Part shown: positions 2,941-6,692 of the stretch, piece by piece
Layout of the letters: the number at the start of each line of letters is the position of its first letter
Position numbering within the stretch: the first letter of the stretch is position 1
IMG/VR virus record: IMGVR_UViG_3300001493_000033
Origin: a virus
Taxonomy: Duplodnaviria > Heunggongvirae > Uroviricota > Caudoviricetes
Strand: one strand, 5' to 3'
DNA: 6,692 nucleotides
Notes under the pieces: generated by a model
Database searches by the model: none
Told to the model about the DNA's origin: nothing
What the model saw: only the letters and a program-made list of their open reading frames with translations
Position numbers and translations under genes: made by a program

Positions 2941-3075
2941 TTGCTTTCCTCCCTGTGACAGATGACTGCATTCCGTGCCGGTTGCATTAACTGATAAGGC
3001 ATATCTGCGTCTCCTGAAGACGTGCGTATCCCTGCGCGAATACGCACATTTAATTTTTCGGGTGTCGTTTTTTAA

Positions 3076-3704
3076 TTACAGATAATTGCGGTAACTGTTA
3101 TCCGGGGTGGTTTCCGGGTCAGGCTCCGTGCGGGGAATTTCCCGCCATTCCCGCGCTACCGGTGCTGCCCGGCTGACCGGAACAGGGTCCTGCGGGTAAA
3201 TATCCAGATATTTCTCCCGCCATTTCTGTAATTCCGGGTCTCCGGCCATTTCTTTCAGTACCGCATGCCGGTTTACGGAGCTGCGTTTAAACAGGTCAGG
3301 ACGGTCACAGGTAAATTCCCGCAGAAAACGCCCCAGCGGGATGTCTGTGGTGCGCCCGTCGGCGAGGATACGCACAAGGATACTGAATTTACGGCGGTAC
3401 GGATTCCAGACAATGTCCGGGCAGCGGTACGGCATTTCCCANNNNNNNNNNGGCTGCGTTTAAACAGGTCAGGGCGGTCACAGGTAAATTCCCGCAGAAA
3501 ACGCCCCAGCGGGATGTCTGTGGTGCGCCCGTCAGCGAGGATACGCACAAGGATACTGAATTTACGGCGGTACGGATTCCAGACAATGTCCGGGCAGCGG
3601 TACGGCATTTCCCACGGAATACCGTCTTCCAGAATGCCGACCACGGCCACATCGGGAAAACCGGCAGAACGGTAAATCTCACCGGGCTGGGGAAAATCAA
3701 ACAT
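3076..3704 (-). CDS. Hypothetical protein, P4 orf151-like; 151 aa once the gap-flanking duplication is collapsed
   Basis: The 143-aa and 119-aa ORF fragments overlap through a 162-bp duplicated segment either side of the N run; merging at MPYRCPDIVW gives 32 + 119 = 151 aa. RBS GGGAG 9 nt before ATG (3704-3702), which overlaps the upstream gene stop (ATGTTTGA). Confidence 0.65.
3280..3614. repeat. Duplicated 162-bp segment on both sides of a 10-N scaffold gap (3280-3441 and 3453-3614); probable assembly artifact
   Basis: Near-identical sequence (2 mismatches) directly flanking nnnnnnnnnn at 3442-3451; collapsing it restores a single in-frame 151-aa ORF. Confidence 0.6.
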
Positions 3705-3984
3705 GCGTCCTGTCTCCCCGGTCTTTCTGCTGGGCGAGAAAATCGCGGCACAGGCCTTTGGCTTTCAGCTCATTCAGCACAAAATCAATATCTTCATTCA
3801 GGTAACTGAAAATATGCGGAATGTAGAGCTGATGCAGGCCGGAGAGTTCACGGTGAATCAAATCACCCCCAACAAACTGGGATACGGCGCTGGCGCGGTT
3901 GAGCTTATGGTAAGCCTCAATGCTGAGGTGTTCACGGGCGTCATGACGTGCTGAGACGGTCTGAGGGGCTTTTTTATTACGCAC
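3697..3984 (-). CDS. Epsilon-position protein, 95 aa, GTG start
   Basis: Open frame ending in TGA at 3699-3697, overlapping the next start codon; in-frame GTG at 3984-3982 preceded by GGAGGU with 5-nt spacing; overlaps the stop of the upstream small ORF. Assignment is by position and size only. Confidence 0.5.
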
Positions 3985-4174
3985 GGGACACCTCCACCAC
4001 CGGCAGACGGGCAGCAAGGGAGAGCACATAGTCACGGACAAGGGAACGGCGGGCGCTGCGTTCATCACCGGCGACGGTGCGAAGCATGCAGATACGGGGA
4101 TGACGGTCTGCGCGACGGACAGCCGCAAACACAAAGACAAATTCAGGGTGTGAGGGGGTAAGGGTTGTAGCCAT
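3977..4174 (-). CDS. Small protein, 65 aa, Kil-position (possible host cell division inhibitor Icd/Kil-like)
   Basis: ATG at 4174-4172 with RBS GGAGG (4186-4182) 7 nt upstream; product [21 protein letters not shown]...; identical copy at 5969-6166. Function inferred from position in the P4 operon, not from sequence recognition. Confidence 0.55.
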
Positions 4175-4181
4175 GATGGCA

Positions 4182-4296
4182 GCCTCCTTGAAGTAACAGT
4201 TACAGCTACCACTGGAGTTCCTACGCTCATGGGTGGTAGCCCGGACGGGGGTAGGAATACCGGCCTTCAAGGAAACCGGCCAGCCCGAAGGCTGCC
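4182..4296 (-). ncRNA. P4-type immunity leader RNA region (CI-like): seqB-like element plus seqC-like target overlapping the Kil-like RBS
   Basis: Plus-strand cttcaagg (4265-4272) and gtaggaa (4251-4257) are complementary to ccttgaag/gttcctac at 4186-4226 and again at 4408-4433; local hairpin gctaccac/gtggtagc (4205-4212/4233-4240); CAGCC-UUCG-GGCUG tetraloop hairpin (4281-4294). RNA boundaries not determinable from sequence. Confidence 0.5.
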
Positions 4297-4377
4297 CCGC
4301 CCGGACCACCATTATCTGACAGAGGCTACGGTTTAAAAACCACAGCCAGAAAAACAGGTGTGCCGAAGCAACGACGT

Positions 4378-4399
4378 AAAAAAAGACGCATGGCGCGTC
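4378..4399 (-). terminator. Intrinsic terminator between the upstream seqA-like site and the seqB element
   Basis: Minus-strand GACGCGCCAUGCGUC (6-bp stem incl. one GU, 3-nt loop) followed by U7 (A-run 4378-4384 on plus); conserved in the second copy at 6406-6427. Confidence 0.55.
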
Positions 4400-4407
4400 A
4401 TATGTCG

Positions 4408-4433
4408 CCTTGAAGTAACTCGGGTTCCTACGC
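4408..4433 (-). promoter_or_regulatory. seqA-like upstream target site (direct repeat of the seqC-like site)
   Basis: ccttgaagtaac (4408-4419) and gttcctacgc (4424-4433) repeat the motifs at 4186-4197 and 4217-4226; both are complementary to the seqB element. Confidence 0.5.
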
Positions 4434-4462
4434 CCGGCTGCCGATTTTGCGGCAGCGGAGAA

Positions 4463-4492
4463 ACTATATCCGCAAATGCCGGAAAAAGGCAA
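4463..4492 (-). promoter_or_regulatory. Candidate sigma-70 promoter (PLE-like) reading toward the immunity region
   Basis: On the minus strand, -35 TTGCCT (4492-4487), 18-bp spacer, -10 TATAGT (4468-4463); conserved in copy 2 (-35 at 6515-6520, -10 at 6491-6496). Prediction by eye only. Confidence 0.35.
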
Positions 4493-4527
4493 GCCAGAAA
4501 AAGGGACTTTTTGCAGAGCGGGCATCA

Positions 4528-4794
4528 TCATGCGTCGTACCCCCGTTTGCGTCCGGCAATGCGCCCGGCCATCCATGCGGTGATTTCAGAGTGCAGCCAG
4601 GCCACATTTTTACCGCCAAGACTCACCTGCGGCGGAAATTCCCCCTTACGGATGAGTTCATAGATGGTCGAGCGTGACAGGCCGCACAGGTGCATCACTT
4701 CCGGCAGACGTAAAAAACGCTCCTGCGTGATGTCCGGCAGCGGCATCAGTGGCGTCACAGGGGCGGGAGACGGGGAAGAAAAAACAGCTTGCAT
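4528..4794 (-). CDS. alpA: AlpA/Vis-family phage transcriptional regulator (excision/integrase regulator), 88 aa
   Basis: Product contains the AlpA-type helix-turn-helix region [27 protein letters not shown]; RBS GAGGU 6 nt before ATG (4794-4792); same size as P4 orf88/Vis. Confidence 0.88.
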
Positions 4795-4896
4795 CGGGCT
4801 ACCTCGTTAATGTCCATACAGCACCGGATAAGTCCGTCCGGCTTCGGGTAGCGCTTTATTTTGTGAATATTTTTGGCAGACGCAACAGGGGGGATT

Positions 4897-4914
4897 TGTT
4901 CCGGNAGCCTTACA
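4897..4914. promoter_or_regulatory. TGT-N12-ACA dyad, candidate Ogr/Delta-type activator site for the leftward late promoter (PLL-like)
   Basis: TGT (4897-4899), 12 nt, ACA (4912-4914); centre about 55 bp from a plausible leftward start near 4850, upstream of the regulator ATG at 4794. Confidence 0.4.
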
Positions 4915-4940
4915 ATGACTGTGTGTTTTTTGTTCATTCC

Positions 4941-4970
4941 CACTTAAAGTCATTTAAAGCCACTTAAAGC
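4941..4970. repeat. Three tandem 10-bp direct repeats (cacttaaagt / catttaaagc / cacttaaagc)
   Basis: Perfectly phased decamers at 4941-4950, 4951-4960, 4961-4970, between the leftward dyad and the ori-like iterons. Function unknown. Confidence 0.5.
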
Positions 4971-5073
4971 AATTCGTAATTTTTATAGTGAAATACAAAT
5001 CGTTTCTTCTTATTCATTCACAGCGAATTAATAAAAACAAACAGTAGTAAACAGCACAAAAAGTCCATGAGCG

Positions 5074-5178
5074 GGTGAACAGTGGTGAACAGACGGTGAA
5101 CAGTCATTACTGCGATTGTTCACCCNTTAACTTACTGTATTACTTATCTTTTTTCTTATGGTGAACAGAGGTGAACAG
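5074..5178. repeat. Iteron cluster, ori-like
   Basis: GGTGAACAG at 5074-5082, 5084-5092, 5095-5103 (about 10.5-bp phasing), 5160-5168, 5170-5178, and inverted TGTTCACC at 5117-5124; flanked by AT-rich sequence (4970-5070, 5180-5200). Confidence 0.6.
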
Positions 5179-5256
5179 TAAAATATAAAAAAACAAACAG
5201 TAAGCCGGTTTTTCCTGCGACCTTTTCCTGGCTTGCCGGTCTGAGGATGAGTCTCC

Positions 5257-5274
5257 TGTGTCAGGACTGGCACA
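5257..5274. promoter_or_regulatory. TGT-N12-ACA dyad, candidate Ogr/Delta-type activator site for the rightward late promoter (Psid-like)
   Basis: TGT (5257-5259), 12 nt, ACA (5272-5274); centre about 55 bp upstream of a predicted start near 5320, with the ATG at 5347. Confidence 0.45.
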
Positions 5275-5346
5275 TCTGCAATGCGTCGTGTTGTTGTCCG
5301 GTGTACGTCACAATTTTCTTAACCTGAAGTGACGAGGAGCCGGAAA

Positions 5347-5931
5347 ATGTCTGACAACACCATCCCTGAATATCTGCAACCCGCACTGGCACAACTGGAA
5401 AAGGCCAGAGCCGCTCATCTTGAGAACGCCCGACTGATGGATGAGACCGTCAAGGCCATTGAACGGGCAGAGCAGGAAAAAAATGCGCTGGCGCAGGCCG
5501 ACGGAAATGACGCTGATGACTGGCGCACAGCCTTTCGTGCAGCCGGTGGTGTCCTGAGCGACGAGCTGAAACAGCGCCACATTGAGCGCGTGGCACGCCG
5601 GGAGCTGGTACAGGAATATGNCAATCTGGCCGTGGTGCTGANTTTTGAACGTGAACGCCTGAAAGGGGCGTGTGACAGCACGGCCACCGCCTACCGGAAG
5701 GCACATCATCACCTTCTGAGTCTGTATGCAGAGCATGAGCTGGAACACGCCCTGAATGAAACCTGTGAGGCGCTTGTCCGGGCAATGCATCTGAGTATCC
5801 TGGTACAGGAAAATCCGCTCGCCAACACCACCGGCCATCAGGGCTACGTCGCACCCGATAAAGCTGTCATGCAGCAGGTGAAATCATCGCTGGAACAGAA
5901 AATTAAACAGATGCAAATCAGCCTCACCGGC
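5347..5931 (+). CDS. Sid/Psu-family late-operon protein, 3-prime end lost in the scaffold gap (at least 195 aa)
   Basis: ATG at 5347 with RBS GAGGAG 6 nt upstream (ORF track begins at an upstream in-frame GTG, 5329); charged, coiled-coil-like product; first gene downstream of the divergent dyad promoter. Position and length fit Sid better than Psu, but this is not resolved. Confidence 0.55.
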
Positions 5932-5968
5932 NNNNNNNNNNGCTGAGACGGTCTGAGGGGCTTTTTTA

Positions 5969-6166
5969 TTACGCACGGGACACCTCCACCACCGGCAGAC
6001 GGGCAGCAAGGGAGAGCACATAGTCTCGGACAAGGGAACGGCGGGCGCTGCGTTCATCACCGGCGACGGTGCGAAGCATGCAGATACGGGGATGACGGTC
6101 TGCGCGACGGACAGCCGCAAACACAAAGACAAATTCAGGGTGTGAGGGGGTAAGGGTTGTAGCCAT
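5969..6166 (-). CDS. Second copy of the Kil-position small protein (65 aa)
   Basis: Same ATG and RBS context as 3977-4174; the coding region lies entirely within the near-identical duplicated segment. Confidence 0.5.
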
Positions 6167-6173
6167 GATGGCA

Positions 6174-6461
6174 GCCTCCGTTAGATAGCAGGTTACGCTA
6201 TCGCCGGAGTTCTCACGCTCGATGGCGATAGCCCAGACGGGGGTGAGAATACCGGCTCTAACGGATACCGGCCAGCCCGGAGGCTGCCCCGCCTGAGCTA
6301 CCATTGACTCAGTGGCATAACATGCGATTGCAAACAGGATCATACCTGCACGGCAAACCACACGCCACACCATAATCTGGCGCTCTGTGGCGTTGATTGC
6401 GACACAAAAAAAGACGCATGGCGCGTCATATGTCGCCGTTAGATTGCTCGGGTTCTCACGC
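6174..6461 (-). ncRNA. Variant P4-type immunity region (seqA-, seqB-, seqC-like sites with altered but mutually complementary sequences)
   Basis: seqC-like ccgttagatagc (6178-6189) and gttctcacgc (6209-6218); seqB-like gtgagaa (6243-6249) and tctaacgg (6257-6264); seqA-like 6436-6461; hairpin gctatcgcc/ggcgatagc (6197-6205/6224-6232); UCCG-loop hairpin 6273-6286; terminator 6406-6427. Confidence 0.5.
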
Positions 6462-6555
6462 CCGGCTGCCGATTTTGCGGCAGCGGAAAAACTATATCCG
6501 CAAATGCCGGAAAAAGGCAAGCCAGAAAAAGGGAGTTTTTGCAGAACAGGCATCA

Positions 6556-6692
6556 TCATGCGTCGTACCCCCGTTTGCGTCCGGCGATGCGCCCGGCCAT
6601 CCATGCAGTGACTTCAGAGTGCAGCCAGGCCACATTTTTACCGCCAAGACTCACCTGCGGCGGAAATTCCCCCTTACGGATGAGTTCATAGA
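6556..6692 (-). CDS. alpA: AlpA/Vis-family regulator, second copy, C-terminal part only (5-prime end beyond window)
   Basis: Near-identical to 4528-4664; stop codon at 6558-6556. Confidence 0.75.

Follow-up and report, generated by a model that had tools for sequence, protein, structure and literature searches.

Predicted Ogr/Delta activator sites of the late promoters PLL and Psid in a P4-like satellite prophage

Introduction

The late genes of phage P2 and of its satellite P4 are switched on by two related activators. Ogr, which contacts the α-subunit of RNA polymerase, binds inverted repeats at approximately −55 in late promoters of P2 (PMC3152322), and Delta is the P4 homologue of Ogr, with both proteins activating the late genes of P2 and of P4 (PMC8628076, PMC7552001). 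The consensus of these late promoters is TGT-N12-ACA (PMC3931495, citing Julien and Calendar 1995). P2 also acts on P4 through its Cox protein, which binds upstream of a P4 late promoter via cox-boxes (TTAAAG/CNCA) and derepresses the P4 prophage; the boxes face away from this promoter, named PLL in the same report, and each Cox binding site contains at least six of them (PMC3936717).

Here we analyse a stretch of 6,692 nucleotides (hereafter, the window) from the IMG/VR virus record IMGVR_UViG_3300001493_000033. An earlier note on this DNA had drawn attention to two TGT-N12-ACA dyads on either side of an array resembling a replication origin, and had interpreted them as activator sites of divergent late-type promoters. 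We assessed this interpretation by comparing the window with the P4 and P2 records and with related loci from genomes, metagenomes and IMG/VR.

Results

The window is collinear with P4. In megablast comparisons with phage records, the window covered P4 4367–10167 at 96.9–97.1% identity; within this range, window 4500–5930 aligned to X51522 8736–10166 at 97.1% identity, and window 4780–5360 aligned to P4 9016–9596 without any gap (coordinates were converted as P4 position = window position + 4236). The P4 gene context was recovered in the window, namely alpha (a 777-aa open reading frame), cnr, orf151, epsilon, the CI RNA, vis, ori and sid. The two genes that the earlier note had described as a leftward regulator and a rightward member of the Sid/Psu family are vis (orf88) and sid, respectively. 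The former (4528–4794, minus strand; aligning to P4 8764–9030) is an 88-aa open reading frame in which 86 of 88 residues match P4 ORF88; it encodes an excisionase/regulator of the AlpA type and comes first in the PLL transcript. The latter (5347–5930, plus strand) is represented by its 5′ 194 codons, interrupted by an N-gap at 5931–5941, and 189 of these 194 residues match P4 Sid (of the five mismatches, two are X residues that arise from Ns). The vis–sid intergenic region (4795–5346) corresponds to P4 9031–9582, again gaplessly, with 533 of 552 bases identical (98%); the differences comprise 17 substitutions and 2 Ns, none of which falls in any dyad arm.

By these alignments, the analysed stretch is a P4-like satellite prophage of the ordinary kind in E. 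coli, and its vis–ori–sid segment is an orthologous copy of the P4 control region that holds PLL (leftward) and Psid (rightward). The resemblance that the earlier note had seen to the Ogr/Delta site form of P2 and P4 late promoters was borne out by this 98% identical, gapless match: on sequence grounds, both dyads are orthologues of the P4 late-promoter activator sites, which are already characterised and not new. The region is also a common one. It was present in 1,006 of 5,426 complete E. coli genomes (~19%), chromosomal every time, and a contiguous copy in E. coli APEC IMT5155 was 99.7% identical to window 4780–5360, differing at the two Ns only. Another P4-like element, with a Sid 98% identical to that of the window, was encountered on a contig labelled 'uncultured Clostridiales bacterium' (URND01000141.1; L005 in our set), and is most likely E. 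coli DNA that was mis-binned into that metagenome-assembled genome.

Both dyads reported by the earlier note, at 4897–4914 and 5257–5274, are perfect matches to TGT-N12-ACA. The first (TGTTCCGGNAGCCTTACA; centre 4905.5; P4 9133–9150) is predicted to be the PLL activator (Ogr/Delta) dyad, and the second (TGTGTCAGGACTGGCACA; centre 5265.5, 81.5 nt from the sid ATG; P4 9493–9510) is the predicted activator dyad of Psid. The earlier note had not recorded the identity with P4, nor three P2 Cox boxes (see below), nor a further perfect dyad at 5295–5312 (TGTCCGGTGTACGTCACA; P4 9531–9548, identical in P4). This third dyad is located 38 bp downstream of the −55 dyad of Psid, is centred at approximately −17.5 relative to the predicted start and overlaps the Psid core promoter, including its −10-like hexamer, CACAAT. 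All three dyads are perfect matches in P4 too. The third is probably the second Delta site of Psid: Delta reportedly leaves a second footprint in this promoter, centred near −18, and such a site was reportedly described by Julien and Calendar in 1995. We also considered 5295–5312 as the −55 site of another, downstream promoter and rejected it, as the start would then fall at ~5359, inside sid.

To gauge how often such dyads arise by chance, we derived expected counts from dinucleotide-preserving shuffles. Perfect TGT-N12-ACA matches numbered 5 in the 6,692 bases, against 1.28 expected (5 or more were obtained in 3 of 200 shuffles), and three of these five sit in the 552-bp vis–sid intergenic region. 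Dyads with one mismatch occurred at chance level (33 seen versus 26.3 expected), so only perfect sites are informative, and the one-mismatch search was set aside as a means of seeking extra Delta sites near PLL. The two perfect matches elsewhere in the window lie at 278–295, within the last alpha codons (P4 has a match there too, at 4642–4659, with a different spacer), and at 3063–3080, at the orf151 stop and upstream of cnr (not perfect in P4); these may be chance matches.

The P2 genome provides a caution on how the motif should be read. Its four annotated activator sites all deviate from a perfect TGT-N12-ACA: the PO/PP and PF sites read TGT-N12-CCA and the PV site reads TGT-N11-ACA (AF063097 3057–3087, 10239–10266 and 17555–17583), and the five perfect matches in the 33.6-kb genome are all outside the annotated activator sites. 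The P4 sites are thus closer to the consensus than those of the helper. Because a search for perfect matches misses all four late promoters of P2 itself, the TGT-N12-ACA pattern by itself is weak evidence and is not diagnostic, so late-promoter calls should be based on geometry and orthology; the identification proposed here draws on orthology, geometry and conservation.

For promoter geometry, P2 (AF063097) was used for calibration because the P4 records lack annotated starts, whereas the P2 record annotates both activator sites and transcription starts for all four late promoters. Promoters were aligned by anchoring on the dyad centre (a MAFFT alignment of eight promoter regions was uninformative). 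In P2, the dyad centre precedes the annotated start by 55.5 nt at PO and at PP, by 57 nt at PV and by 57.5 nt at PF, and the −10-like hexamers take the form xAxxxT, with GAAACT and TAGCCT (PO and PP) at +44 to +49 of the dyad centre and GAAAAT (PF) one base further, at +45 to +50. When the window promoters were placed in this dyad-anchored alignment, −10-like hexamers were found at +44 to +49 in both: AAAATA for PLL (4857–4862, minus strand) and CACAAT for Psid (5309–5314, plus strand). Transcription is predicted to start at ~4850 for PLL, with a leader of ~56 nt to the vis ATG, and at ~5321 for Psid, with a leader of 26 nt to the sid ATG. The earlier note had placed the dyads about 55 bp from plausible start points, in keeping with hexamers spaced as in P2, where centre-to-start distances are 55.5–57.5 nt. 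The comparison with P4 PLL and Psid and with the P2 late promoters that it had proposed thus returned a gapless match to the former and P2-like spacing for the latter.

A promoter and terminator scan of 4700–5400 detected neither a terminator nor a full sigma-70 −35/−10 consensus, the latter as expected because activator-dependent promoters lack a −35; both cores are weak, with the −10-like hexamers CACAAT and AAAATA present and a −35 consensus absent. The start predicted for PLL falls at P4 9086, ~396 nt from the early-promoter −10 annotated in X02534 (P4 8699–8704), a spacing consistent with the distance of about 400 nt at which PLL is said to lie upstream of PLE.

Conservation was evaluated across 165 related loci recovered via Sid-based scans of genomes (5 loci), metagenomes (80) and IMG/VR (80); most of the 160 metagenome and IMG/VR loci are at least 98% identical in Sid, and deep divergence is represented by only ~9 loci. 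At the Psid −55 site, the dyad arms were intact in 149 of 149 E. coli-type loci and the spacer alone varied (GTCAGGGCTGGC in 134 loci, GTCAGGACTGGC, the window's allele, in 14 and GCCAGGGCTGGC in 1), and the 5295–5312 dyad was identical in all 149. At PLL, the arms were intact in 145 of 148 loci, with at least eight spacer alleles; one arm reads TAT and not TGT in three loci, L058 and L114 among them, and two apparent arm exceptions are register shifts from a 1-nt indel. The PLL spacer of the window (4900–4911) concentrates 3 of the 17 intergenic substitutions relative to P4, together with one N, within 12 bases. At 4905, this N almost certainly stands for C: the sequence that results, TGTTCCGGCAGCCTTACA, is the commonest allele in the relatives (92 of 148 loci); in the PLL orientation, with the N read as G, the same commonest spacer allele (92 loci) is AAGGCTGCCGGA.

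Divergent elements with Sid proteins 62–66% identical to that of the window (Mangrovibacter, Tatumella and five IMG/VR contigs) kept both the arms and the position of the sid-side dyad: in Mangrovibacter its distance to the ATG is 81.5 nt, and in the others it occupies the same column of the alignment. Both the Psid dyad and its spacing to the −10 were retained in these elements (L006, L009 and L166–L169), with the spacer itself changed to the TCATTTTTGC type. The dyad at 5295–5312 has no right arm in this group, because the −10 there becomes CAGAAT. Upstream of vis, the most divergent elements have no perfect N12 dyad, with N11- or N13-like arrangements only; the PLL site is thus not as widely shared as the Psid site.

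The array flanked by the two dyads, which the earlier note had called ori-like, is the P4 ori. It has six type-1 repeats (TGTTCACC/GGTGAACA) at 5074–5177 (P4 annotation 9310–9413, transferred through the gapless alignment), to which the alpha primase-helicase binds. At 4944–4972 (plus strand) are three P2 Cox boxes (TTAAAG(G/C)NCA), phased at 10 bp and facing away from PLL, two of them perfect and one with a single mismatch; they coincide with the P4-annotated 'ori type 2 repeats' (window 4940–4969). As at least six boxes are stated for each Cox site and three are clear here, the remaining boxes must be degenerate. Among 133 E. coli-type loci, the ~35-bp segment that holds the Cox boxes occurs as three alternative cassettes of equal length (A, the P4 type, in 65 loci; C in 50; B in 17; and one indel variant of C), and the swaps leave the flanks and the dyad-to-ori distance (176–177 nt) constant.

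The gene for an activator is expected just beyond the scaffold gap. A tblastn search with P4 Delta identified no delta or ogr gene in the window, in agreement with the earlier note, which had allowed for an activator gene beyond the gap. The related loci place it there: delta directly follows sid in 164 of them by the same search, and the contiguous APEC IMT5155 copy has the order sid, an ogr/Delta-like zinc-finger gene, psu, defence genes, int and tRNA-Leu. That delta is missing here is most likely an artefact of the scaffold and not biology, because the N-gap at 5931–5941 truncates sid. In the divergent elements, the delta homologue matches one Ogr-like half of P4 Delta only (~46–55 residues).

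Other features of the scaffold also point to imperfect assembly. An N-run at 3442–3451 is flanked by overlapping, near-duplicate sequence of ~160 nt inside orf151 (3283–3612), and past the N-run at 5931–5941 the middle of sid joins a second epsilon/cI/vis copy (5942–6692, versus 3950–4700), which must derive from another P4-like prophage or a mis-join. The two immunity regions (4185–4470 versus 6177–6500) appear to be heteroimmune variants: their CI (C4-type) RNA and target blocks differ coordinately (TTGAAGTAAC... and GTTAGATAGC..., with TGTGAATAGC... in P4), as if the CI RNA and the upstream target repeats had changed together. Rfam searches recovered C4 antisense RNA, isrK and c4-a1b1 in both immunity copies, with the C4-type antisense (CI) RNA and its targets at 4229–4469, and gave no match in the vis–sid region. 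The scaffold is gapped and partly mis-joined, and the copy in the window may be incomplete or no longer transcribed.

Discussion

We conclude, with a probability of roughly 93%, that PLL and Psid, late promoters of the P4 type, have their upstream activator sites in the dyads at 4897–4914 and 5257–5274, respectively. Three other explanations were weighed. A pattern that fixes only 6 bases might yield functionless matches by chance, and several observations lean that way: one-mismatch matches do not rise above expectation, the five perfect matches in P2 all lie outside its real activator sites, and the window matches at 278–295 and 3063–3080 have no obvious promoter role. However, three perfect matches fall within a single intergenic region of 552 bp, 145–149 of ~149 relatives have unaltered arms while the spacers change, the sid-side dyad holds its position at 62–66% Sid identity, and the sites are orthologous to P4 promoters that have been studied experimentally. 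The combination of gapless P4 orthology, invariant arms in ~150 relatives and a sid-side position kept in distant elements suggests that the dyads exceed chance, and we consider a fortuitous origin extremely improbable. A part in replication, with the dyads serving as structural or alpha-protein elements of the origin and not as promoter sites, would accord with the P4 record, which labels 9086–9809, including both dyads, as 'origin of DNA replication'. Yet the annotated ori repeats are the type-1 sequence given above and a 10-bp type-2 repeat, not TGT-N12-ACA; the type-1 array is separated from the left dyad by 160 bp and from the right dyad by 80 bp; and the distance from each dyad to the start of the adjacent gene is fixed, with a −10-like hexamer in between at P2 late-promoter spacing, all of which makes an origin function exceedingly unlikely.

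The dyads might instead be operators of another regulator encoded by the element, such as Vis (AlpA family), acting without Ogr or Delta. The vis gene is directly downstream of PLL, the 5295–5312 dyad overlaps the Psid core in a position typical of repression, and Vis is reported to regulate PLL and Psid, which would favour such a role. On the other hand, P2, a phage without Vis, uses the motif at equal distance in its late promoters, and published work assigns the motif to Ogr/Delta (PMC3931495, PMC3152322); we therefore regard Vis operators as very unlikely to account for these dyads. Regulation by Vis could nonetheless be true in addition to activation by Ogr/Delta, with the Vis sites elsewhere in the region.

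If the dyads are the activator sites of PLL and Psid, the identity and collinearity with P4, the promoter geometry, the conserved arms and the delta genes of contiguous relatives, as observed here, can be assembled into a model of late control. PLL would be read leftward through vis/orf88 and then the immunity region into the epsilon–cnr–alpha operon, and Psid rightward through sid–delta–psu, with both acting as weak sigma-70 promoters that have a −10-like hexamer and no usable −35. An activator from the Ogr/Delta family of small zinc-finger proteins, supplied by a P2-like helper (Ogr) or by the element itself (Delta), would bind the dyad ~55 nt upstream of the start and recruit RNA polymerase through its α-subunit. 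Where transcription actually starts, that Ogr/Delta and Cox bind and how the polymerase is contacted are elements that the model borrows from established knowledge of P2 and P4. Because delta lies in the Psid operon, downstream of sid, Psid would be subject to positive feedback, self-reinforcing once triggered. PLL may receive a second helper-specific input, with P2 Cox acting on the phased boxes just upstream of the dyad to derepress the prophage.

As textbook P4 late promoters in a common E. coli prophage, these sites carry little weight as a discovery; the practical gain is that the window can be labelled correctly as P4-like, with PLL, the Cox boxes, ori and Psid in place. The variation around PLL raises a broader idea. 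The cassettes could be allelic binding sites for the Cox or Apl proteins of different helpers, and, more speculatively, the control region of PLL as a whole might form an allelic 'helper-sensing' module in which spacer alleles and Cox-box cassettes are tuned to the helper. If so, the alleles would tune which P2-like helper (through its Cox/Apl and Ogr/B/Pag proteins) wakes the satellite, and the window would combine a P4-type Cox box with a common spacer. We consider such a module rather unlikely; the spacer and cassette diversity at PLL could equally be neutral variation in unconstrained positions together with ordinary mosaicism.

Among described systems, the closest are the P4 promoters themselves (X51522/NC_001609; PLL at about 9086 and Psid at about 9557), which share with the window the flanking vis/orf88 and sid genes with ori between them, and in which the Cox boxes, the second Psid dyad and the dyad arms are identical. 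The window differs from P4 in the PLL spacer (TCCGGNAGCCTT versus TCAGGCTGTCTT in P4; three substitutions and one N), in the Psid spacer (one substitution, G to A at 5266) and in the absence of delta and psu, most likely owing to the scaffold gap; both of its spacer alleles are common in E. coli prophages. In the derepression of P4 by P2 Cox, the three phased boxes of the window (4944–4972) adjoin the PLL dyad upstream and face away from it, as in P4, whereas Cox sites are described as having at least six boxes (PMC3936717) against three clear ones here, and many related prophages carry another cassette at this position. The Ogr-dependent P2 promoters PP, PO, PV and PF would belong with those of the window in activator family and in architecture (a dyad 55.5–57.5 nt upstream of the start in P2, matched by the predicted starts of the window, a −10-like hexamer ~44–50 nt from the centre and no −35), and the left arm of the PO site, TGTGTCAG, equals that of P4 Psid. 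The P2 sites are imperfect (TGT-N12-CCA or TGT-N11-ACA), whereas those of the window are perfect. PP and PO share one dyad, in contrast to the divergent promoters of the window, which have separate dyads 360 bp apart with ori between them; and where the P2 late promoters drive virion and lysis genes, those of the window would serve the regulatory and capsid-size genes of a satellite.
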